From positions 30,001-62,000 of the forward strand of contig CAZPUN010000017.1 of assembly GCA_964589775.1 (NCBI GenBank): a stretch of 32,000 nucleotides of DNA, given 5' to 3'. The translations under genes were made by a program, and so were the position numbers. This stretch comes from an uncultured archaeon (GTDB taxonomy: Archaea > Asgardarchaeota > Thorarchaeia > Thorarchaeales > CAZPUN01). The notes under the pieces are model-generated. The model saw only the letters and a list, made by a program, of their open reading frames with translations, was not told the DNA's origin and searched no databases. Positions 4,209 to 17,882 of this stretch are shown here, in pieces. How positions within the stretch are numbered: the stretch's first letter is position 1; every line of letters begins with the position of its first letter.

Positions 4209-5252
4209 GTGAATTTTGTGACTGATCTCCTAAAAGAACGATACTCACGTCAAATTAAGGTTCCAATTATTGGACAAAAAGGCCAATTAAAAATAAAACA
4301 CGCACGAGTAGCAGTCATAGGAGCAGGAGGATTAGGATCACAATTAATTTACCAAATTGTAGGACTTGGAGTTGGATTTTTGAGAATAGTAGACCGCGAT
4401 TTTGTAAGTATATCAAACTTGCACAGACAAATTTTATACACAACAGAAGATATTGGACGCCCAAAAGTTGAAGTTGCAGAAGAAAAATGCAAAAAGATGA
4501 ATCCGGAAATATCAATCGACGCAATACATACAACGATTAACAAATACAATGCATATGAGATCGTAAAGGATGTAGATATAGTTCTAGATGGCTTAGATTC
4601 GTTCCAAGTTCGAAAATATATTGCAGATGCATGTTGGGAATTAAATAAACCATATATTTTTGGAGGTGCAAAACTACTATATGGGAACGTATCAACATTC
4701 ATACGGGATAAGAGTCCATGTTTTAGTTGTGTATTCGAAAACATGATGGACGAAGCGCCTTGTGTAGAATTTGGAATAATACCCGAAATATTAGGAGTGG
4801 TTGCATCAATACAAGTAATGGAAGCACTCTATATAATATTAGGAAAAAAGCCAAATTTAATTGGAAAGATGTTATATATTGATTTGAGTGACCTTTCATT
4901 TGAAAGAATAGACTTATTTGGAGAGAAAAATTGTAACTTATGTAATAAAGAGGATGATAAAATGATAGACAAACAGGATGTCGTCATTTCAATCTTATGT
5001 GATGGAAAAACATATGACATTTCACCAAAAAAATTCATAAATATCAATTTAAGTAAAGTCAAGGAAATTGTTGAACCAGAATATAAAGTAGATGTAATGA
5101 CAAGAAATGGTATAATTTTCTGGTATTCCCCAGAAACAAAAATAAGCTTAATGAAACGGGGATCCATGGTAATAACAGGTGTAGATACAGAAGAAAAAGC
5201 ATTAAAAATTTATGAAACGATAATGAGTAAAATAGAAGATGCCATCAGCTAG
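4209..5252 (+). CDS. ThiF/MoeB/E1-like adenylyltransferase with C-terminal TBP-like domain
   Basis: GAGGLG, DRDFVSISNLHRQ, PCFSC and NCNLC Zn pairs, putative catalytic Cys in PCVEFG; tail GSMVITGVDTEEKALKIYE. Confidence 0.9.
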   Translation: MNFVTDLLKERYSRQIKVPIIGQKGQLKIKHARVAVIGAGGLGSQLIYQIVGLGVGFLRIVDRDFVSISNLHRQILYTTEDIGRPKVEVAEEKCKKMNPEISIDAIHTTINKYNAYEIVKDVDIVLDGLDSFQVRKYIADACWELNKPYIFGGAKLLYGNVSTFIRDKSPCFSCVFENMMDEAPCVEFGIIPEILGVVASIQVMEALYIILGKKPNLIGKMLYIDLSDLSFERIDLFGEKNCNLCNKEDDKMIDKQDVVISILCDGKTYDISPKKFININLSKVKEIVEPEYKVDVMTRNGIIFWYSPETKISLMKRGSMVITGVDTEEKALKIYETIMSKIEDAIS

Positions 5253-5811: not shown

Positions 5812-6249
5812 ATGACAAATAAAAAGAAGAAATATCTTTTCAAGATTACCGTAGATGGTCCAAATGATGCTCTAAATCAAGATGTTTTAAAAATTATAAC
5901 ACAATCATATGTACAGATACACGGACTTGGAATTTATGAAACTACAAAAGAAACAGACAACGAACAAATAAATACTGTGATAATGTCTCCAAAGCATGAT
6001 GCAATGCATTTTATCTTATCGCTTTCATATAAAAGAAGTTCCGGAGCCTTAATTGTTTTGGAAGAAAAATATAAAGATCGAGTCCATGAATACGAAGAAC
6101 GCGTTGTCAAAAATGCAGGAGAAATTCCAACACGTATAATCGTGATACCAAAGGAAACAAATTCAGAAGAGCTTAAGAAATTAGTAGAGAAATATCTCGA
6201 CGAATTAATAGATGCAATTATTGAAATAAAAATAGGTGGAAATAAGTGA
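5812..6249 (+). CDS. Degenerate Rab/Ras-like small GTPase-fold protein (pseudo-GTPase)
   Basis: KYLFKITVDG, GLGIYETTKETDNEQINTVIMSP, SYKRSSGALIV, GEIPTRIIV follow the Rab strand/helix order; GKS/T, DxxG and NKxD absent. Confidence 0.6.
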   Translation: MTNKKKKYLFKITVDGPNDALNQDVLKIITQSYVQIHGLGIYETTKETDNEQINTVIMSPKHDAMHFILSLSYKRSSGALIVLEEKYKDRVHEYEERVVKNAGEIPTRIIVIPKETNSEELKKLVEKYLDELIDAIIEIKIGGNK

Positions 6250-6587
6250 AATACACCTATTTTATATATATTGGTTTTAGTTTAATTTTGTTAGGGAGTA
6301 TACTTTTAATTTTTGGAACTGAAAATATGGACTCTATTCTAATTATATTTCCATTTATAATTACTACAGATAATAATCCATTAATAATTATTATCACGTT
6401 TAGTATCGCAATATTCATACCACTCCTTATAATGCTTAATATTTTTAATTTTAATAATGAACAAAAATACAAGAAATGCCCAAAGTGTAAAGCAATTTCC
6501 GTAAGAGATGCAAGTTTCTGTTGGAATTGTGGATACAAGTTTGATGATGAAAATGATGAGCATATCAATTCGGAAAGCAACAATTGA
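6246..6587 (+). CDS. Small membrane protein with C-terminal zinc ribbon
   Basis: Hydrophobic segments followed by CPKC...CWNCG; GTGA overlap with upstream stop. Confidence 0.8.
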   Translation: MKYTYFIYIGFSLILLGSILLIFGTENMDSILIIFPFIITTDNNPLIIIITFSIAIFIPLLIMLNIFNFNNEQKYKKCPKCKAISVRDASFCWNCGYKFDDENDEHINSESNN

Positions 6588-7014
6588 AGATATCGATGTA
6601 ATCGTAAAAATTGAGGAATCCTGCTTTATTGATAATTGGGATTTTGATACATTTTATGAGATTTTAACTTCAGGAAGTTCGTTTAGTCTAAATAAAAGTA
6701 ACATACACATATATGTTGCAACCTTTGAAGATATTATAATAGGATACATATGTTTTTCAATCAACAAAACAGTTGGGCATATTCTTAATTTTGCAGTTTT
6801 TAGAGATTATAGAAATAAAGGAGTCGGTACCAAGTTATTAAAAAACGCAATTAACATAATGAGAGAAAACGGATGTAAAAGAATAATTTTAGAAGTTTCT
6901 ACTATTAATGAGAATGCAATATCGTTATATAAAAAATTCGGATTCAAAAATAAAAAAATATTGAAAAATTATTATCGAATGAATGATGCATATCGTTTTG
7001 AATTGATACTTTAA
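6553..7014 (+). CDS. RimI/Ard1-like GNAT N-terminal acetyltransferase
   Basis: IRKATIEDI, GHILNFAV...YRNKGVG, LEVSTINENAISLYKKFGF, YY...DAY; start likely ATG 6553 or 6556. Confidence 0.9.
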   Translation: MMSISIRKATIEDIDVIVKIEESCFIDNWDFDTFYEILTSGSSFSLNKSNIHIYVATFEDIIIGYICFSINKTVGHILNFAVFRDYRNKGVGTKLLKNAINIMRENGCKRIILEVSTINENAISLYKKFGFKNKKILKNYYRMNDAYRFELIL

Positions 7015-10000
7015 GATCCTCTCCTAAATTTTATTAGCTGAGGTCCAATGATTTCAGAATAGATTTTTACATAACCAGGATCTATTGATACCAATGAAAC
7101 AATGGGTGCTTTTTGTGCTTGTGGAGCTAATAGTAATTCTTCAGAATCCCTAAGACAAATGTAAGAAGGAATTTCTCCAGTCCAGATTTCCCAGCCTAGG
7201 TCCTTTATTTTTTGATACAACTCATGAGTTTTCTTTAATGGTGAAATAAGAACACGCTTTGCACCTGTTGGGACTTGTGATAACTGCTCAACAGAAATTG
7301 ATTCAATATCTGGAACAGATAAAATAACGATCGATTTTGTTCTACTGAGCATATCTGATATGTGGGCAATTATTGCGTCTTTTCCGGTGATATGCCAAGT
7401 GAGTTCAGAACCAGGTGGGATAAACCGATCTGTGATTTTCCATAATTCTTCTAATAATTGAGAGAATTTGGTAGTTTCAGAAATTGCAGATTGCGAACTT
7501 TCAATGATCTTCTTAAATGATTTGTTTATTTTTGTATCATATGAAGAAAGATCAGTTTTTACCTTTTTACCAATAGTGTCAAAAATTTCTTTTGTTTCAG
7601 AAATCATTTTTGAACTTTCACGATTTATAATCAAATTGAGTTCATCAGACACACTATCAATTTCGGATTTTGTTGTTTGATTTATTTGATTTACCAAATT
7701 AGATATTTTTGTCTCAAGAGATTTGATATTACGTTTAACAATTACATTAATATTTTTCCCAGTAGTTTCTGTAACTTTACGGATATTATTTATTGAACCT
7801 GAGATAATACTTTCAATAGCTTCAGTATTACCAGTTAAGTGCTGAATTACTGAATTAAGAAGCTTAGAATGCGTATCACTAATTGAATTTGCAGTGCTTA
7901 TGAATGCAGTATTAGAGCTATTTAGAGATTCTGAAACTAATGATAATGAGTTATCGATATTGTTTATAGACATATTTTGATATTCAGATAAAGCAGAATT
8001 GAACTTTGAGAATATTTCATCATGCTTTGATTTTAGTGCAGTAAAGTTATCATTTATTACGGAAACAATATTGTCATTAATTTGAGACGTTATAGTTCGA
8101 GTAATATCGATTGATTTATTGATTTCATTTTCAAGAATTGTTCGCATCTTACCAGTGAGATTTATCTTTAGTGAATTAAGTAATTCGATGTTTTCAGACT
8201 TAATGTTATCTATTTGCTCATATGAGTCCTTAATTATTATAGATACACGATCTGATGATGCTTCTGCAGTAGTTACTAAATTCAATAAGCCAGAAGAAAT
8301 TTGGTCGCGTGCATTTGCAATAAGACCATCGGTCTTCATTTTAATCGATTTAATAGTATCATCAAGGGTCTTATCTAATAAAATTCGATCTTCGGATATA
8401 GATTCAACAAGCGTATTTATAGAATTAATAAATACACTCTGTTTTTCAGATATTGATTGATCATAGAATTCATCAATTTTCGTAAATGAGTTAGATATTT
8501 CAGAGAATATATCTTGCAAAACCTCTTTTTGGGAGTTTGCATAGGATTCGACATATTTGTTAATAGATAGGGAAATTTTGTTAATCTGATTTATTGATTT
8601 AGATATAGTAGATTGAGATAATTCTCGAATTGTTGATTCAGATTCATTAATTTTTGATGAAAGAGATTCACTAACACCAGTTAATTCCTCATGGATTGGT
8701 GTAGAGATACTATCATATAGATCATGAGATCGTTGTGTATAGCTTGATAATAATTTCTTCAGAGAGGTATCAAGGGTAGAAACCATTTCTTGCGTTTCAA
8801 GAATGTTGTTGTTAACAAGTTCATTGAGTTCTGCCTGAACTGCATTAAGCTTTTCATCAACCGTTTTAACATACTTATCTAAGACACCCTCAATATTTGA
8901 TTTGATTAATTGAGAATGCTCGTTGATTTTCTTCAATTCACTGTTGACGAGTTCAGTAAATTCAGTATATGACTTTCGAATCTGAACTTTAGTATCATCA
9001 ATATGGCTTTCTAGAAACTGGTTCATAGAATATTCAAACGAATGTACCATGTCAATAAAACTTGAAATCATTTGTTCAGAGAATTTTTTGAATTCTTGCT
9101 TTATTCTTTCTTTTTCAGCATCTAGCTTTGAAACTTGGGAATCTACAAGCTTTACTACTGTCTCATTTAAAGATCCGGCATAATCATTTATTTTCGTCAA
9201 ACTAGAGGTTATCTCTTCAAAAATTACTGTGTCAAGATTGTTTAGTACATTTCTAATTTCATCACTTAGAGATTTTGAGATTTGAGAATATGCAGATTCA
9301 ACCTCATCGATCTTTGAAGATATTGAAGATTTATAACGATTTATCAAATCAAGAATTTCATCTAATGTTGATGTGGATAATTCATCACTGGACTTGCTAA
9401 ACTCATCGATATATGTTTTAACAATTTGCTGAACTTTAGATAGGGATTCATCAACCGCATTTTTTACGTCTCTAAGATTTGATATAGAGGTATTCGCAGT
9501 TGAATCAATAGTATCACGAACTTCTTTGATTAACTTCTTGTGTTCAGCATCAATACTTTTTGTTATTTCATGACTCTTAGCAGTATATTCTTCATTTAGT
9601 AATTTGAATGATTTTTCAATTTCGTCTTTGATTGTTGATTCAACACTATGTACAACTTCCTTACCAGATAGACTTATTGACTCAGCTAATGATTTTAATT
9701 GCTCTAGATATTCCTTTCGCTTTTTATACAATTGCTCGTATTCATTTAAAATTGCAGAACGAGAGTTTTTCAAAAAAGTATCTTCTAGACTATGGATTCT
9801 TTCCAATTGTGCTATTGCAGAAGATCTTATAATCTCAATATACGTATCAATTCCATTTCGCCATTCATCAATCTCGTTATTAACCGCAGCTAAGCTATCA
9901 CGCGCATTCTCAAAAGCCTTCTCCACAGATTTTAGAATTTCTTGATTACTTGTATCAATTTCACCAATTGCATGTTCTAAAGAAGTTCTTGCATCATCAC

Positions 10001-10907
10001 TCAATTTTGATAACTCTTGAATACTATCTTGAGAGATGCGTTCAATTTTCTTCGAGATTGTTGCCAATAAAGTATCTATTTGATTAGTATCCATGGATTT
10101 AATTTCAGATACGCTTTTTGCGATATCAGAAAGAACTGAAACAAAATCAGATTTAAGCTTTGATAAAACAGTCTCAATTTTTTCGGATACATTAGAAATT
10201 GTTTCATTTAAAGTATTGAGTGTCTCATCAATTTTTTTATCAGCCGACACCTTTTCATTATTAAGAGAATCAATAATTGTATCAGAACGAGTGGATATTG
10301 TTTTATTAATTTGCTCACGTACTGTATCAAGTTCAGATATTATATTTTTTAAAGACGTATCAATTTCATTTTTCAATGATGAGACGATCTCATTGATATT
10401 TGATTTGCTACTTGAACTAACACCTGAAAGGTATGAATCTATACTTTTTTCAAGTTCATCAACGATTTTCTTTATCAAGCTTTGAGTTTCGGACATAATA
10501 GCTTTTGATGTTGCTTCAATGCTTTCCGTGGTTTTTGCAAAGCTATTTTGGAAATCATCAATTATTTTTGAAATCAAATTTATTACTTCAGATGATCCAG
10601 ATTCTGCAACCTCACTCATTTTTGAAAATGACTTAGTAACCTGACGTATCGTTTCACTTAATGATTCAAATGGAGGAGCAGCTTTATATTTTACTACAAC
10701 GCCTTCAATTTTTATTATAAACTTACGGGCAATTAAATTAGACAGAATCGATTCGACTGAGCTAAGAGATAATTTTGATAAAATTGAGATTTCACCAGAA
10801 GTTAAAGGACCTGCAACCAAGATAGGTAAATATACGGAAACTTCATCAGTACTTAGCTCAAAATTTTTTGAGAGTATGTCTTGAATAACTTGATATTCAT
10901 CACTCAT
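7011..10907 (-). CDS. Giant TrmB-like protein: N-terminal winged HTH, ~1080-aa hendecad helical rod, C-terminal TrmB/PLD-like domain
   Basis: N-term LSTDEVSVYL...GPLTSGEI...KYKAAPP; C-term WHITGKDAI...MLSRTKSIVILSVP and CLRDSEELLL; nearly Pro-free amphipathic rod with 11-residue periodicity. Confidence 0.75.
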   Translation of the reverse strand: MSDEYQVIQDILSKNFELSTDEVSVYLPILVAGPLTSGEISILSKLSLSSVESILSNLIARKFIIKIEGVVVKYKAAPPFESLSETIRQVTKSFSKMSEVAESGSSEVINLISKIIDDFQNSFAKTTESIEATSKAIMSETQSLIKKIVDELEKSIDSYLSGVSSSSKSNINEIVSSLKNEIDTSLKNIISELDTVREQINKTISTRSDTIIDSLNNEKVSADKKIDETLNTLNETISNVSEKIETVLSKLKSDFVSVLSDIAKSVSEIKSMDTNQIDTLLATISKKIERISQDSIQELSKLSDDARTSLEHAIGEIDTSNQEILKSVEKAFENARDSLAAVNNEIDEWRNGIDTYIEIIRSSAIAQLERIHSLEDTFLKNSRSAILNEYEQLYKKRKEYLEQLKSLAESISLSGKEVVHSVESTIKDEIEKSFKLLNEEYTAKSHEITKSIDAEHKKLIKEVRDTIDSTANTSISNLRDVKNAVDESLSKVQQIVKTYIDEFSKSSDELSTSTLDEILDLINRYKSSISSKIDEVESAYSQISKSLSDEIRNVLNNLDTVIFEEITSSLTKINDYAGSLNETVVKLVDSQVSKLDAEKERIKQEFKKFSEQMISSFIDMVHSFEYSMNQFLESHIDDTKVQIRKSYTEFTELVNSELKKINEHSQLIKSNIEGVLDKYVKTVDEKLNAVQAELNELVNNNILETQEMVSTLDTSLKKLLSSYTQRSHDLYDSISTPIHEELTGVSESLSSKINESESTIRELSQSTISKSINQINKISLSINKYVESYANSQKEVLQDIFSEISNSFTKIDEFYDQSISEKQSVFINSINTLVESISEDRILLDKTLDDTIKSIKMKTDGLIANARDQISSGLLNLVTTAEASSDRVSIIIKDSYEQIDNIKSENIELLNSLKINLTGKMRTILENEINKSIDITRTITSQINDNIVSVINDNFTALKSKHDEIFSKFNSALSEYQNMSINNIDNSLSLVSESLNSSNTAFISTANSISDTHSKLLNSVIQHLTGNTEAIESIISGSINNIRKVTETTGKNINVIVKRNIKSLETKISNLVNQINQTTKSEIDSVSDELNLIINRESSKMISETKEIFDTIGKKVKTDLSSYDTKINKSFKKIIESSQSAISETTKFSQLLEELWKITDRFIPPGSELTWHITGKDAIIAHISDMLSRTKSIVILSVPDIESISVEQLSQVPTGAKRVLISPLKKTHELYQKIKDLGWEIWTGEIPSYICLRDSEELLLAPQAQKAPIVSLVSIDPGYVKIYSEIIGPQLIKFRRGS

Positions 10908-12515: not shown

Positions 12516-13367
12516 CTAAAAAACTTTGGCATTTTTTAGAATCTGCTTGCCCTTATAATATGGAAGACCTATCGCCTCAAAAATATCGATTAAATGACGC
12601 CTTTGCTTGCCTGAACACCCTTTCCAATCAATAATTGCAAAATCGATTTTGGAATCGGTCCGTTCAACCATCTTACGTACCATGTCTTCATCTAATTGGT
12701 CAAGTACATATTTTGCGGCCATATGTCCAATAGCGATGTCTGTCGAATACACAATATCATTAAATTTTGAGACATAGTGCCCTCCACCAAAACCAATAGC
12801 ATTCTTTTCTGAATGCTTATATTCTAATGCGATCCGCATAATAGAGCGAGCTACAGCCAAAGCACCCAATTTGTTGTTCCAATGGGTTTCATCACTACCC
12901 AATTCAACAAATATAATGGGAGTATTCAGATCAGTTGGACCATGATGCGTTGCTTCGAGCGATACATCAAAATCGTTCAAACTAAGAATTATCTTTTGAC
13001 GCATTAATTCGATAAGTGCGAGTTTTAATGCCATAGGCGCAGATACCGCAATTTCACGCGGATTTCCACCCAACGATGCATCATTACCAAGATTTCCAGG
13101 AGTATGTGCTAATAATGCAGGTACGCCAGATTTAGATTTATGACGAGATGCAAAAATAAATAGGTCGGTCTTGAATTTTTTCTCGATATGATTTGTATTG
13201 ATTAAATCTCTATCAGATGTTATTAATAATACATCAGTATCTTTGAACCTATACACGATATAGCCGTCAAATTCAATTTCAGTTGTATTAAATTCAAAGT
13301 GTGTCAACAATTGCCGTTTAATTGTCAAAGACGCCATGTCCTTAGATGATGCAATGATATAGGGCAT
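12516..13367 (-). CDS. dtdA: Archaeal D-aminoacyl-tRNA deacylase (DtdA/GEK1)
   Basis: FASRH, AHTPGN, EATHHGPT, FVELGS, GFGGGHY, GHMAAKY, IDWKG. Confidence 0.95.
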   Translation of the reverse strand: MPYIIASSKDMASLTIKRQLLTHFEFNTTEIEFDGYIVYRFKDTDVLLITSDRDLINTNHIEKKFKTDLFIFASRHKSKSGVPALLAHTPGNLGNDASLGGNPREIAVSAPMALKLALIELMRQKIILSLNDFDVSLEATHHGPTDLNTPIIFVELGSDETHWNNKLGALAVARSIMRIALEYKHSEKNAIGFGGGHYVSKFNDIVYSTDIAIGHMAAKYVLDQLDEDMVRKMVERTDSKIDFAIIDWKGCSGKQRRHLIDIFEAIGLPYYKGKQILKNAKVF

Positions 13368-13377
13368 TTATAATCGC

Positions 13378-14577
13378 CTACAATATGATTTCAACTGATT
13401 CTTCAATTCGCTCTTGAATTTCAGACTCAATCTTTAATTTATATTCATGTATTTTCTCATGATGCTTTTTAAGATCGTCTTGCGATTTTAGTAAGACATT
13501 TTGATGATATTCTAGATTGCGTTTTGCTTCTTCTAAGGCGTCTTCTAATTCCTTGAGGCGTGTATAAACATTTGAATTTTGTAATAGCTCATTCTTACGT
13601 GAAATAAGCTCTTTCGCTTTCTTTTGAATTTTTAATAATGAACCATTAATTATTTTTTCAGATTCTTCAATTGCTCGCCTTTGCAGGCGGTCCTTTAAAG
13701 AGAGATTTCCGGCATTTATCGTTTCAATTAGTCCGCGCAATGCCGCCTTTAAAGAAGGATAACCATCATCATCTTCATAAATAGCATTTAGTGGATCTTC
13801 AGAATATGATGAAATAGCCTTTGCACCACCGGGATATACCGTAGCAGTATGCTCATCCATTGCCTTTTGATACTTTTTAAAGGCTTTCTTCAATGGACTT
13901 AATTTCATTTTAAGTTCGCTTTCAAGAGATTTAATATCTGCATCTATAGACAAAAGTTCAGCTGCCTTTGTACTCTCCATAAATTTTTCAAGTTCGGTTT
14001 GTGCTTTCTCTAATTCAATTTTCGCAGTTTTAGATTTTGATTCCGCCATTTTGATTTCTTCTTCATAAAAACTAATCTTATCGATAAGAGAATACATGTT
14101 TTCAATATGATCTTTGACACGTTCAAGATCCTTTACCCATGAATAGGCCTGCATAAATTTTAGCAATTTTTGATAATCACTCTGAAGTATTTTTAATAAA
14201 TGGTCTAGATCACGAATTATCGGTTTATACTTTTTGTCTAATCTAGGGATCCAACGCCGGCCCCAATCAGTAATTTCAACGAAAAATGAACGAATACTTT
14301 TCTCCAAATTTTCAATACCGGAATATGTTATCTCTTCAGGAATTTCAATAGAATCTACAAGTTCTTTTATTTTTTCACCATATCTATAAGCAATTCCTTC
14401 AAGTTCTGCAGTTTCTTCAGGGCCACTAAGACGCTCTGCCACTTCAATTATATCAGGTAATAACTTCTTAATTGAATTTACAATTTTTTTACCATCATTT
14501 CTGAAAGACTTTGTTTTCTTACTAATCTTTTTAGAGTACCATTTCTCCAATTCCGAGATTTTAATTTTGGACGGCAA
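13378..14577 (-). CDS. Coiled-coil-rich hypothetical protein
   Basis: 399 aa, K/E-rich helical, two long coiled-coil segments flanking a small domain; TTG start. Confidence 0.8.
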   Translation of the reverse strand: MPSKIKISELEKWYSKKISKKTKSFRNDGKKIVNSIKKLLPDIIEVAERLSGPEETAELEGIAYRYGEKIKELVDSIEIPEEITYSGIENLEKSIRSFFVEITDWGRRWIPRLDKKYKPIIRDLDHLLKILQSDYQKLLKFMQAYSWVKDLERVKDHIENMYSLIDKISFYEEEIKMAESKSKTAKIELEKAQTELEKFMESTKAAELLSIDADIKSLESELKMKLSPLKKAFKKYQKAMDEHTATVYPGGAKAISSYSEDPLNAIYEDDDGYPSLKAALRGLIETINAGNLSLKDRLQRRAIEESEKIINGSLLKIQKKAKELISRKNELLQNSNVYTRLKELEDALEEAKRNLEYHQNVLLKSQDDLKKHHEKIHEYKLKIESEIQERIEESVEIIL

Positions 14578-14638: not shown

Positions 14639-15130
14639 TTAGATAAAATCTGGCGCACGTAATCCAAGCGCCTCCATTTTGGCAAAACCTTGTGAAAATA
14701 AACTCATATAATGTCTAATCTCTGTTTCAATTTCTAATAATTCAGAAATGATTAATGATGCTTCATCTGTATCTTTTTCGCTGATTGCATCAATAAGATC
14801 TGTTAATAAATCACTAAATCGCATTAATAATTCTTCAATATTGTCAAGAATATCCAACATGGATTGAAGAACTGCACTATATTCCGGACCAGAAACAGCC
14901 GATAAAACATCGCCAATGGCTAATCTACAATTATCAACTTGAGAAAGCCTATGTGCAATTAAGACATCTCGTAAGTCTATGAGATAAGTTAACATTTCTT
15001 CATGCGTGAATTTTAATAGTTCATCAAGAGATAGATATTGAACTTGAGGACCAAATTCAGTACCTTCAAAAGACAACCATTGATTAAAAGCTTCTATTAC
15101 CCTTTCCCAGTTTTGAATAAGATCGTCCAT
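14639..15130 (-). CDS. Acidic all-helical hypothetical protein
   Basis: ATG 15130 preceded by GAGGAGGT SD; Leu/Asp/Glu-rich amphipathic helices. Confidence 0.8.
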   Translation of the reverse strand: MDDLIQNWERVIEAFNQWLSFEGTEFGPQVQYLSLDELLKFTHEEMLTYLIDLRDVLIAHRLSQVDNCRLAIGDVLSAVSGPEYSAVLQSMLDILDNIEELLMRFSDLLTDLIDAISEKDTDEASLIISELLEIETEIRHYMSLFSQGFAKMEALGLRAPDFI

Positions 15131-15192
15131 ATAATACCTCCTCAAAACGTAATATTCATATCTATAAATATTAAACGAATCATTGAATTACA

Positions 15193-16365
15193 TTGAAATG
15201 TAGAAAGCATTCACTATCCATCCTCGAACCATACTATTCGAATAATAAAATCTATGACAAATATTCATTCTTAACAAATATAAACTATTTTAAAGAATGC
15301 GAGTCAGAACTTAAAATAGCAATATATCCGTATAATATCGATGAAATTTTAGATGAAATTAAAACAATCCCAAATTTATTAGTAATCTCAAAACAGAATT
15401 ATATTTTTGTAGATCATGAATTATCAATCAATATAAACATGTTTAATGACTCAAAATTAAGAATTATAGATGTAGGAAATGTAAAATTTGGGATAATTCA
15501 AAATGACGAACTTTTTGATAATTCTATAATCGATTTGCTAATTAACGAAAAAGTCAATGCAATAATATATGTCTCATGGACACTAAACACCGAATTTTCA
15601 GAACTACTTGATAAAATCATTCAAGGCGATTCTGTAAAGCTAAATGTATTTTTTATATATCTAACATTAGGCAATCCATTAGGACCAAATAAAACAAAAA
15701 TATACAATGCAAAAGGGATAGATATAACAGAAGAAGACAATTTTAAAATTGCACCAATAAAATTAGCAAAACAAATAGAGATACGAAACTCAATTGGAGC
15801 GCCATATTTCAATTTACCAAAAATAAAGTATTCAAAAGAAAAAGGAGAGCCGAAAAGAAGAATAACAGGAAGAGACGAGGGCGGATTAATTAATTGGATA
15901 TCAATTTCTACATATGATGTAATAAATTTGAAACATGTCATAGCAAATAAGAAATTTACAATACTAAATACAAAAAATATTGCACAGATAAACCAAATAT
16001 TTAGATTTGCTATTGAAGAAAAATCCCTTGTGAAAAAGGCATATATCGAATTTCATAATGAGATTTTTGATCTTAAATATGTAATTAATAGCAATACAAT
16101 TACATTTACATTACCCAAGATGCTTTTACCTGGAGAGCAAATTACATTCCATATAGAGTATGAAATTTTTCAATCAAATGCACTTAAAGTATTAACAGGA
16201 GGATTTATGAGTTCAATTGGAGTCATTAATGTGCATAAAAAAGAGTATACATTTACAATTAATCCAAATAAAATTATAACAATGGATGGAACTATCCGAA
16301 ATGTTTGGAGCAATAACAATCTAAATAAAGATTTAGAAATTGGAATAAAATATGAACAGAAATAA
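15193..16365 (+). CDS. Hypothetical protein with degenerate nitrilase/CN-hydrolase-like N-domain and beta-rich C-domain
   Basis: IIDVGNVKFGIIQNDELF...KVNAIIYVSW and NKTKIYNAKG resemble nitrilase motifs without the catalytic Cys; start uncertain. Confidence 0.55.
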   Translation: MKCRKHSLSILEPYYSNNKIYDKYSFLTNINYFKECESELKIAIYPYNIDEILDEIKTIPNLLVISKQNYIFVDHELSININMFNDSKLRIIDVGNVKFGIIQNDELFDNSIIDLLINEKVNAIIYVSWTLNTEFSELLDKIIQGDSVKLNVFFIYLTLGNPLGPNKTKIYNAKGIDITEEDNFKIAPIKLAKQIEIRNSIGAPYFNLPKIKYSKEKGEPKRRITGRDEGGLINWISISTYDVINLKHVIANKKFTILNTKNIAQINQIFRFAIEEKSLVKKAYIEFHNEIFDLKYVINSNTITFTLPKMLLPGEQITFHIEYEIFQSNALKVLTGGFMSSIGVINVHKKEYTFTINPNKIITMDGTIRNVWSNNNLNKDLEIGIKYEQK

Positions 16366-16993
16366 TCTAGAAATTGATTTTTTGTTTAAAATATTAAAAT
16401 TATCTGTAGGCGATAAATTAGAAATAAAAGATATAGACAATATTGCGTATTACGAATCCACAAATACTATAACAATAACTCCACATCTAAAACTATTTGC
16501 AGCTGAAAAGCTCTTACAAAATCACTTTGATATCGAACAAATTTTACAGTATTCAACATGGAAAGACTTTGAATCGTTTATTGAAGAGATCCTCAAAGAA
16601 CATGATTTTATTACGGGCAAGAATATTAGATTTAGAGACAAAAGAACAAAGAAATTATATGAAATTGATGTAATTGGAATATCATATAATTATGGAATTG
16701 CCATAGATTGTAAAAAATGGAAACATCGCCCAAGTAAACACTCAGCACTTAGAGCCGCAGCGATAAAGCAAAAAGAACGTGTGATCGCAATGAAGCGATC
16801 TTATGAAAATATAGAAAAATATCCAATATTAAAAATAATAAAAGAGAAAAATGTAAGAATGTTTCCAATAATAGTAACATGGGCAAATGAAGATATGGAT
16901 ATAATTAATGGAATTCCAATAATACCAGTAGCAAATTTTAACGACTATCTATTAAAATTTGACGAGTTTAATGATTATTTATTCTCAATATAA
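16352..16993 (+). CDS. Mrr-like PD-(D/E)xK endonuclease-fold protein
   Basis: WKDFESFIEEIL, EIDVIG, IDCKKW. Confidence 0.8.
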   Translation: MNRNNLEIDFLFKILKLSVGDKLEIKDIDNIAYYESTNTITITPHLKLFAAEKLLQNHFDIEQILQYSTWKDFESFIEEILKEHDFITGKNIRFRDKRTKKLYEIDVIGISYNYGIAIDCKKWKHRPSKHSALRAAAIKQKERVIAMKRSYENIEKYPILKIIKEKNVRMFPIIVTWANEDMDIINGIPIIPVANFNDYLLKFDEFNDYLFSI

Positions 16994-17006
16994 TGAAGGG
17001 ATATAT

Positions 17007-17882
17007 ATGAAAATTGGAATAGCATATCACAAAGACATTAGTAATTGGACTACTGCAGAGTTAATTAAGGCAATTAAGGATGAAGGCGAGGAACCCGTAC
17101 CATTTCAAGTTCAAGAAGTTACTGCAGACATACCCGACAACTTTTCAATAGGAAAACAATTAGAGCCCTTGAATGATCTTAATGCAATAATATTAAGAAC
17201 ATATGGATTTGGTACAACAGACCAACTTACGTATAGAATAAGCTTATTTGAACACTTAGAAAATGCCGGGATACCCGTAATAAATTCAACCCACGCATTT
17301 AGAAAAGCTAAAGACAAATATGCCGCATTATTCACATTAAGTAAAGCCGGTATTCCAGTACCAAAAACTAGAGTCACGGAAAACTTAGATGCTGCAATTG
17401 AGTTCTTAGATCATGTGAAAAGCGTCATAATAAAGCCATTATTGGGCTCCAGGGGATATGGTATAATAAAAACTGATAATAAAGATTTAGCATATCGAGC
17501 TTTAAAATTCATATTTTCTCTTGGACAAGTCCTCTATTTACAAGAGTATATTGAAAAGCCAGATAGAGATATACGAGCTTTTGTAATTGGCGATGAAGTA
17601 ATAGGTGCCATGTATAGATATTCTACAAATTGGAAAACAAATGTCTCACAAGGTGCGAAACCGGTTGGTTGCAAATTAAGTGAGGAATTAGAGGAAATAG
17701 CAATTAAAAGTGCTCATGCAATAGGACTTGATTATACAGGAATTGATATAATTGAGGGAAAAGATGGACCCTATGTAATAGAGACAAATGCGGCGCCAAG
17801 TTGGCATGGATTAGAAGAAGCTATTGGTGAAAACGTATCAAGAAAAATAATAAGATATGTGAGAGCAAAAGCTCGAAAATAA
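17007..17882 (+). CDS. RimK-family ATP-grasp alpha-L-glutamate ligase
   Basis: KDKY, GIPVPKT, IIKPLLGSRGYG, YLQEYI, DIRAFVIG, WKTNVSQG, GIDI, IETNAAP; ATG 17007. Confidence 0.92.
   Translation: MKIGIAYHKDISNWTTAELIKAIKDEGEEPVPFQVQEVTADIPDNFSIGKQLEPLNDLNAIILRTYGFGTTDQLTYRISLFEHLENAGIPVINSTHAFRKAKDKYAALFTLSKAGIPVPKTRVTENLDAAIEFLDHVKSVIIKPLLGSRGYGIIKTDNKDLAYRALKFIFSLGQVLYLQEYIEKPDRDIRAFVIGDEVIGAMYRYSTNWKTNVSQGAKPVGCKLSEELEEIAIKSAHAIGLDYTGIDIIEGKDGPYVIETNAAPSWHGLEEAIGENVSRKIIRYVRAKARK

Follow-up and report, generated by a model that had tools for sequence, protein, structure and literature searches.

The rod protein gene P0001 occupies positions 7011..10907 on the minus strand of the window (the whole stretch of 32,000 nucleotides that was analysed). 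According to the list of open reading frames and its translation, it encodes 1298 amino acids and begins with an ATG start codon. Orthologs of about 1297-1316 aa were present in 37 of 40 related genomes. Directly upstream lies P0002 (10904..11725, minus strand; 273 aa), whose stop codon overlaps the ATG of the rod gene. P0002 possesses five invariant cysteines with the spacing C-x2-C-x6-C-x5-C-x22-C and was present in 142 of 201 Asgard genomes. It was also located directly upstream of a rod gene in eight fetched loci of four other families, and the gene pair was kept in families f1, f2, f3, f7, f15 and f21. As judged from these sequence comparisons, P0002 is a conserved partner gene of rod genes across several Asgard families. 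The adjacent gene, P0003 (11798..12484, minus strand; 228 aa), encodes a coiled coil, a Ser/Glu-rich linker and a small helical C-terminal domain. It was syntenic in 10 of 11 loci of relatives and was not detected by BLAST in loci of other families. Neither P0002 nor P0003 had a match in PDB sequence searches or in NCBIfam. On the other side of the rod gene, a convergent GNAT acetyltransferase gene (6508..7014, plus strand; Pfam Acetyltransf_1, E 1.7e-23) overlaps the stop codon of P0001 with its end and was syntenic in 12 loci of relatives. A word-based homolog search returned no more than two homologs for P0001 and two for P0002. A search for related loci gave none when started from P0001; started from a relative, it gave one 'Candidatus Thorarchaeota' contig, on which the placement of the source in the Thor group of Asgard archaea rests.

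An earlier, sequence-only reading of this DNA had placed a TrmB-type winged helix at the N-terminus of P0001 and a TrmB/PLD-like domain without the HKD motif at its C-terminus, and all of this was borne out. The winged helix-turn-helix (residues 1-82; 10662..10907, minus strand) matched the Pfam model TrmB (PF01978) at residues 13-79 with 34.2 bits (cut-off 25.6) in the full-length scan, and with 39.5 bits (E 5e-10) when it was scanned alone. The C-terminal domain (residues 1166-1298; 7014..7412, minus strand) was assigned by AlphaFold2 and Foldseek. No Pfam model matched residues 1140-1298 at E up to 10, and a profile search of the PDB gave only a weak match, to TrmB (3qph, E 0.5). For the AlphaFold2 model of the C-terminal part (pLDDT 89.8), TrmBL2 ranked first among the Foldseek matches (5bqt, 5bpi, 5bpd and 5box; E 5e-9), followed by NucT, Zucchini, Nuc, PLD3, FAM83 and TrmB (2f5t, E 2e-6; 3qph, E 1e-5). 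The catalytic HxK(x)4D motif of PLD enzymes is missing: there is no HxK in residues 1166-1298, and the family alignments show no conserved His or Lys. Only W, G, L, P, D, Y, R and E are invariant or nearly so in the family, and in this domain the near-invariant residues are W, R, D and E only. Nor is there a sugar-binding subdomain like that of TrmB, the protein ending about 130 residues after the rod with room for one domain only. A predicted complex of residues 1-330 with residues 924-1298 scored 0.02 and was given no weight as evidence.

Judged by profile matches and structural models, P0001 carries at its ends both halves of a DNA-binding protein of the TrmBL2 type. TrmBL2 (TK0471/PF0496) is a nucleoid-associated TrmB-family protein of Thermococcales with the same order of domains, i.e. 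a TrmB winged helix, a helix and a single PLD-like domain, and it likewise lacks the HKD residues and the sugar-binding subdomain. The NCBIfam model of TrmBL2 (NF041141) was collinear, weakly, with residues 8-122 of P0001 only, and the score of P0001 against this equivalog was 17.9 bits, far below the cut-off of 530. While TrmBL2 comprises about 264 aa (NCBIfam model, PDB chains) and has a short connecting helix, the linker of P0001 extends over about 1083 residues. TrmBL2 binds and coats double-stranded DNA non-specifically. The winged helix of P0001 is acidic, with a net charge of -3 to -4 according to the exact residues counted, which makes DNA binding by P0001 doubtful; in most orthologs the charge is +2 to +7. 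The recognition helix (SLSSVESILSNLIARKF) has neither Arg nor Tyr at the positions which we take to be the DNA-contacting ones of TrmB.

The rod (residues 83-1165) contains one Pro and 14 Gly in about 1083 residues, in agreement with its description as an almost Pro-free linker, and its net charge is about -49. The 11-residue register that had been read from the sequence was confirmed by Fourier analysis of hydrophobicity, which gave a single peak at 3.66 residues with a power of 1024; none of 200 shuffled sequences exceeded 121. Among homologs of 600 aa or more, the peak lay at 3.64-3.68 residues without exception. Compact helical-bundle repeats, which had been named as the contrary outcome, are absent. 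Residues 360-1140 consist of 71 hendecads in a single register, in which hydrophobic residues fill 70-72% of positions a, e and h and 42% of position d. There is a weak enrichment of basic residues beside the hydrophobic face and of acidic ones on the side opposite to it. Phase profiles of P0001, 29 homologs and the family mean reveal one large register change in the rod of P0001, designated D1 (residues ~314-391; 9735..9968, minus strand), a shift of about +100 degrees within a locally heptad-like region that includes the near-invariant W349. A second discontinuity, D2 (residues ~831-886; 8250..8417, minus strand), is seen in the family-mean and ortholog profiles as a shift of about +50 degrees with an amplitude minimum and lies roughly opposite D1. 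To our knowledge, a run of about 98 hendecads in which the register is disturbed no more than twice is exceptional. Two residue pairs, W349/G885 and G183/G1050, occupy mirrored positions (sums 1233-1234); these pairs were noticed post hoc and are only suggestive.

Rod length among homologs, which the sequence-only reading had proposed to compare, proved to be invariant. It was 1085-1088 residues in about 35 representatives, including f7 loci and subfamilies without detectable rod similarity. The rod of P0001 is only about 15% identical to those of its orthologs and can be aligned with them almost without gaps. That the length is kept within about 2 residues of 1087 at this level of identity implies a strong geometric constraint, and because of this invariance a ruler, strut or tether fits better than an ordinary regulator, as had been supposed.

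The same reading had envisaged an unbroken rod of about 160 nm. This is probably wrong. A helix break in the AlphaFold2 model, a conserved centre, mirrored charges and balanced indels indicate a reversal, and the hendecad helix most likely folds back antiparallel near residue 616, giving a rod of about 80 nm. The predicted N-arm (residues 83-612; 9072..10661, minus strand) and the predicted C-arm, which would return to the head (residues 619-1165; 7413..9053, minus strand), are hendecad helices of constant 11/3 phase. Between them, at the rod midpoint (624), lies a conserved, aromatic-rich stretch (residues 590-675; 8883..9140, minus strand) with a predicted turn at 613-618. Its conservation is the highest in the rod (0.53-0.71), and a profile built from it matches every member of the ~1297-aa class at one and the same position. 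AlphaFold2 modelled residues 460-800 as a hairpin of two helices (461-612 and 617-799) with a break at 613-616, and pLDDT dropped below 50 at 612-618. Confidence in the hairpin was moderate (pLDDT 67.6, pTM 0.34), and helices that truly pair between chains may also be folded back by AlphaFold2. The model superposed on the chemoreceptor 2ch7_A with Z 12 over 304 aligned residues; VIA-align superposition was used for model geometry only, since Z 12 is common among long helices. A Foldseek search of the PDB with the hairpin model gave no match at E up to 0.001.

Mirrored positions along the rod carry complementary charges. When family-mean charge at x was compared with that at S-x, the strongest anticorrelation was obtained at S = 1238, corresponding to a centre at 619 (r = -0.22; z = -4.9 relative to the 277 other S values); the mirrored r was negative in five of six arm segments. 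The mirror-charge centre falls at 616 to 619, the N-arm and C-arm being complementary at x versus ~1237-x, and core-to-core coincidences peak at S = 1240. In five of eight length classes the mirror-charge minimum lay 5-20 residues before the geometric midpoint. With P0001 alone the charge test was not significant (z = -2.5). The mirror correlation of hydrophobicity does not discriminate, because periodicity makes many values of S score alike, and side-chain volume complementarity and covariation at mirrored core positions gave no significant signal in 24 sequences.

The lengths of the two halves point in the same direction. In alignable paralog pairs the length differences of one half equalled those of the other (106/106, 99/99, 88/88, 62/62 and 55/55), and further pairs gave 44/44, 18/18, 11/11, 7/7 and 6/7. 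Paired indels were situated at mirrored distances from the ends, and the remaining ones precisely in the middle of the rod (-22, relative position 0.01; -29, at the centre). These balanced indels separate paralogous length classes, the class of P0001 itself being without indels to compare. A longer ortholog, P0012 (1537 aa), contains a 232-residue tandem duplication (75% identity) which is centred on the midpoint. An indel in one arm only would throw the pairing of the arms out of register, and the rod length would consequently be frozen while the sequence drifts.

Some observations speak against a fold-back. Hendecad phase and amplitude run unbroken through the proposed tip, as they would in a continuous helix, and D1 (~+100 degrees, near 350) and D2 (~+50 degrees, near 855) are mirrored only roughly and differ in size. 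The continuous 11/3 phase across the centre would suit an extended parallel homodimer, in which the unbroken helices of two chains form a straight, in-register coiled coil about 160 nm long, the winged helices being paired at one end and the PLD-like domains at the other and the length being conserved as a ruler or for lateral assembly like that of intermediate filaments. The helix following the winged helix in TrmB and TrmBL2 structures is a parallel dimerisation element, and intermediate-filament rods are similar in having a precise length and a register discontinuity at a conserved place. We nevertheless regard this arrangement as unlikely. It predicts neither mirrored, equal-sized or centre-clustered indels nor a charge anticorrelation between x and 1238-x, all of which were observed; it leaves the conserved stretch at the exact midpoint unexplained, and it does not agree with the helix break at 613-616 in the AlphaFold2 model.

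It might also be thought that P0001 is an ordinary sequence-specific transcription factor of the TrmB type, whose long coiled coil serves for oligomerisation or sensing only. The winged helix does score above the Pfam TrmB cut-off, and the JGI name of the ortholog P0004 is 'sugar-specific transcriptional regulator TrmB'. However, the sugar-binding subdomain is missing and the C-terminal domain of about 130 residues is most like TrmBL2; genomes across the phylum each carry 2-7 paralogs, which fall into sharply separated length classes; regulation needs no rod frozen at 1087 residues; and the winged helix of P0001 is acidic, with a recognition helix devoid of Arg and Tyr. Such a role therefore seems quite improbable. 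Even less credit can be given to an apolipoprotein-, perilipin- or LEA-like amphipathic helix that would lie flat against a membrane, a lipid droplet or another hydrophobic surface, anchored there by its TrmB-derived ends: although P0001 exceeds the cut-off of Pfam Apolipoprotein A1/A4/E (PF01442) with 99.4 versus 90 bits (a paralog reaches 101 bits), matches ApoLp-III weakly and has the charge distribution around the hydrophobic face described above, the PF01442 score is the total of five weak stretches, no more than three to four of eleven positions make up the narrow hydrophobic face, the rod is strongly acidic (about -49), Pro-punctuated 22-mers, a secretion signal (the N-terminus is a cytoplasmic winged helix) and a lipid context are lacking, and balanced indels and mirrored charges point to helix-helix pairing. 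The match to PF01442 reflects the shared 11/22-residue amphipathic periodicity and not shared ancestry.

We consider it fairly probable that P0001 is a TrmBL2-type protein whose linker has grown into two arms that form an antiparallel rod of about 80 nm, a strut or tether of fixed length. In this fold-back model the ancestor would have had the layout of TrmBL2, with a winged helix, a helix and a catalytically dead PLD-like domain. The connecting helix would have been extended into a pair of arms matched in length, at about 530-545 residues per arm, both non-supercoiling hendecad helices with an a/d/e/h core. The chain would reverse at the short, conserved, aromatic-rich tip (residues ~613-618), and the arms would pair antiparallel over their whole length to give a stiff rod. 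The winged helix and the PLD-like domain would thereby meet at one end of the rod as a TrmBL2-like head, which may bind DNA or chromatin as TrmBL2 does, and dimerise; the acidic head of P0001 may bind a protein instead. A second contact could be provided by the conserved tip together with the co-encoded five-cysteine protein P0002. The whole molecule would resemble an SMC/Rad50-like arm without the ATPase, and as to its function our best guess is a strut or tether of fixed length that carries a chromatin-type head.

The predicted architecture has several features in common with the arms of SMC, Rad50 and MukB, namely a long intramolecular antiparallel fold-back, N- and C-terminal domains that form the head, a conserved arm length with compensating changes in the arms and an apex marked by a conserved element. 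The hairpin modelled by AlphaFold2 superposes on Rad50, Smc and Smc5/6 arms with Z 8.7-11.2. In contrast to these proteins, P0001 has no ABC ATPase head (no ATPase match in Pfam or NCBIfam), no hinge domain and no zinc hook, no kleisin-like partner was identified, and its periodicity is hendecad, that of SMC, Rad50 and MukB arms mostly heptad. An SMC arm measures roughly 50 nm, and the arm of P0001, at about 80 nm, would be longer. Hendecad coiled coils are known from the tetrabrachion stalk (RHCC), the E-G peripheral stalk of A/V-ATPases, Scy/FilP and Maxi. They share with P0001 the 11-residue periodicity, the a/d/e/h core and straight or slightly right-handed rods, but most are parallel between chains and much shorter, and none has TrmB-type end domains. 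The winter flounder antifreeze protein Maxi (4ke2) is itself a helical hairpin of 11-residue repeats, on which the model superposes over 196 residues (rmsd 4.6). Weak NCBIfam matches to ZorA (31 bits, cut-off 190) reflect coiled-coil composition.

A profile of the C-terminal domain matched 199 of 201 sampled Asgard genomes, usually with 2-7 copies, and a literature search found no published description of this rod-protein family. Asgard cell biology is a field with little experimental knowledge. Rather speculatively, the family might constitute Asgard-wide, ATPase-less, SMC/Rad50-like struts of lineage-fixed lengths (~45, 55, 65, 80 and 115 nm) that act as physical spacers or tethers within chromatin or between chromatin and the envelope or the cytoskeleton, with P0002 as a metal- or redox-dependent adaptor. 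If this were true, it would amount to a nucleoid- or cell-architecture system, so far undescribed, in the prokaryotes most closely related to eukaryotes. Should the head bind chromatin, these proteins would represent a new class of genome-architecture proteins with SMC/Rad50-like arms but no motor. Their predicted hendecad fold-back design would in any case be unusual among coiled-coil structures.

The gene of the rod protein P0001 is an open reading frame of 1298 codons on the minus strand (7011-10907), whose start codon (ATG) and the stop codon of the upstream gene overlap. Both ends of the protein proved to be related to TrmB, as the sequence-only reading had proposed. Residues 13-79 match the TrmB winged helix (PF01978) above the Pfam cut-off. 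The last 159 residues matched no Pfam model, and their relationship emerged from an AlphaFold2 model that drew on 84 homologs of the C-domain and was confident (pLDDT 89.8). The best Foldseek matches of this model were structures of TrmBL2 (5bqt, 5bpi, 5bpd and 5box; E 5e-9), followed by PLD-fold nucleases and pseudo-enzymes and then by TrmB itself. The residues conserved in the C-domain family are W, R, D and E; because neither a His nor a Lys is among them, the HKD motif is absent, which bears out the earlier description of a PLD-like domain without it. In its domain architecture P0001 matches the chromatin protein TrmBL2 and not the sugar-sensing TrmB.

The region between the two ends (residues 83-1165) contains a single Pro. 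Its hydrophobicity gave one Fourier peak, at 3.66 residues, with a power of 1024 compared to at most 121 in 200 shuffled sequences. The hendecad phase stays the same between about residues 90 and 320 and again from after 391 to about 1130; over residues 314-391 it shifts by about 100 degrees and the periodicity becomes locally heptad-like. Residues 360-1140 accommodate 71 hendecads in one register, with hydrophobic residues at 70-72% of positions a, e and h and at 42% of position d. The 11-residue register originally noted in an almost Pro-free linker is therefore real. As all homologs of at least 600 residues peak at 3.64-3.68, the observation is robust and holds family-wide.

The length of the rod is frozen. 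A search with the C-domain among 1.84 billion representative proteins yielded 124 clusters, whose lengths have a sharp mode at 1295-1302 residues. With profiles setting the boundaries, about 35 representatives have 1085-1088 residues between winged helix and C-domain, among them members of subfamilies whose rods have no detectable similarity to each other (those of the homologs P0030, P0056, P0061, P0078 and P0118). A rod of this length also occurs in loci from another Asgard family. In a set of 22 representatives sharing at most 50% identity with one another, the rod alignment is nearly gapless at a mean identity of 26% (15% for P0001 against the rest). The phase shift around residue 350 has kept its position. 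Other paralog classes have sharp rod lengths of their own, namely 759 (4 representatives), 870-873 (7 representatives), 883-885 and 1547-1549 residues (3 representatives); over the whole family, lengths cluster at about 533-548, 616-655, 759, 870-873, 883-885, 1003-1029, 1085-1088 and 1547-1549. Exactly 42 hendecads separate rods of 1087 and 1549 residues; the remaining steps do not correspond cleanly to multiples of 11 or 22. The sole large length change within the otherwise invariant 1087-residue class was found in P0012, a longer ortholog of 1537 residues carried by one genus. It is a tandem duplication of 232 residues (gapless copies, 75% identical) which is centred on the midpoint and takes in the conserved central stretch, giving the protein two 'tips'. 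An open frame for 1574 residues on another contig (G029:C115) is probably of the same form.

It had been supposed that the rod is unbroken and would reach about 160 nm. The AlphaFold2 predictions and the comparative sequence analysis argue instead that it is likely to fold back on itself, with two equal arms paired antiparallel. Such a rod would measure about 535 residues x 0.15 nm, i.e. roughly 80 nm. Residues 460-800, modelled with 24 orthologs, formed two helices with a break at 613-616, which is 15 residues off the centre of the supplied fragment and within about 10 of the midpoint of the full rod. This model could be superposed from end to end on several long antiparallel hairpins, namely the chemoreceptor 2ch7 (304 aligned residues), the arms of Rad50 and Smc, and the 11-residue-repeat antifreeze protein Maxi. 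The most conserved stretch of the rod, residues 590-675, is rich in aromatic residues and lies on the midpoint. When the family-mean charge at position x was compared with that at S-x, the strongest anticorrelation occurred at S = 1238, corresponding to a centre at 619 (r = -0.22; z = -4.9 relative to 277 other S values), and five of six arm segments showed the signal. Core-to-core coincidences peaked at S = 1240, and in five of eight length classes the charge minimum fell 5-20 residues before the geometric midpoint.

Length differences between paralogs point in the same direction. In all reliably aligned pairs they were either exactly central (-22 and -29 residues) or split equally between the halves (106/106, 99/99, 88/88, 62/62, 55/55, 44/44, 18/18, 11/11, 7/7 and 6/7). 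Insertions that form a pair mirror each other in their distance from the two rod ends. For instance, insertions of 44 and 44 residues are found at distances of 48 and 54 from their respective ends, those of 44 and 46 residues at 114 and 97, and those of 11 and 11 residues at 160 and 180. The duplication in P0012, with its centre on the midpoint, likewise favours the fold-back. On the other side, the hendecad phase runs unbroken through the proposed tip, the other register irregularity, near residue 855 (about +50 degrees), mirrors the first only roughly, the confidence of the AlphaFold2 hairpin is moderate, and the length class of P0001 itself provides no indels.

The best lead to the function of the rod protein is its pairing with the gene directly upstream. 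P0002 (10904-11725, minus strand; 273 residues) has five invariant cysteines spaced C-x2-C-x6-C-x5-C-x22-C together with conserved NP and NW motifs, and belongs to an unnamed family without a match in Pfam, NCBIfam or PDB. All 11 related loci have an ortholog of P0002 in front of the rod gene, and these orthologs, with 28-34% identity, are better conserved than those of the rod protein itself (18-23%). A single copy of P0002 is present in 142 of the 201 Asgard genomes sampled, and in eight loci, belonging to four further families, it lies directly upstream of rod genes, on the same strand; the products of these are of 836, 1028, 1230 and 1307-1310 residues. The gene pair is old.

The winged helix and the PLD-like domain might reunite as a TrmBL2-like head which would bind DNA or chromatin and dimerise. 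The conserved tip and P0002 could supply a second contact, in which case the rod protein would serve as a strut or tether of fixed length. The head of P0001 is acidic and its recognition helix lacks Arg and Tyr, so that DNA binding by P0001 itself is uncertain; the heads of most orthologs are basic. A full-text literature search found no description of the family. The present analysis adds the mirror-charge test, the tally of balanced indels, the finding that the rod keeps to 1087 residues from one subfamily to the next, and the pairing of the P0002 gene with the rod gene.

The C-domain profile matched 199 of 201 sampled Asgard genomes (26 of 27 families), mostly with 2-7 matches per genome, and the length classes are lineage-specific. 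The genome containing the window encodes a second rod protein, of 1091 residues (L002:1492-4767, equivalent to about 10032-13307 of contig G000:C12, plus strand), with a TrmB winged helix, an 873-residue hendecad rod and the same C-domain as P0001; the protein scores 101 bits against the Pfam Apolipoprotein model. Its gene is preceded by one for a DUF530/DUF1699 protein and followed by one for an AAA_22/AAA_16 (STAND-like) ATPase (L002:5156-5695), which runs off the end of the locus.

Beyond P0002 lies the gene of P0003 (11798-12484, minus strand), a protein of 228 residues with a coiled coil at its N-terminus, a linker rich in Ser, Glu and Thr, and a small C-terminal domain, which is helical and conserved in Thor-group relatives. 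Synteny of this gene and of a convergent GNAT acetyltransferase gene is limited to the Thor group. Next along the window come a D-aminoacyl-tRNA deacylase gene (12516-13367) and, further on, a RimK-like ATP-grasp gene (16959-17882); the four sizeable open reading frames between them (13378-14577 and 14639-15145, minus strand; 15193-16365 and 16352-16993, plus strand) had no match above cut-off in Pfam or NCBIfam. On the other side of P0001, the plus strand encodes a ThiF/E1-like protein (4209-5252; E 1.4e-69), whose last 70 residues are weakly TBP-like at a sub-threshold score, and a 145-residue protein without family match (5812-6249), which is kept beside the locus in several relatives, with identities reaching 38% over 135 residues. 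The window has a G+C content of about 31%. The genome, that of an Asgard archaeon of the Thor group, comprises 2.16 Mb at 96.8% completeness, and all of its relatives come from the same order but from a sister family.
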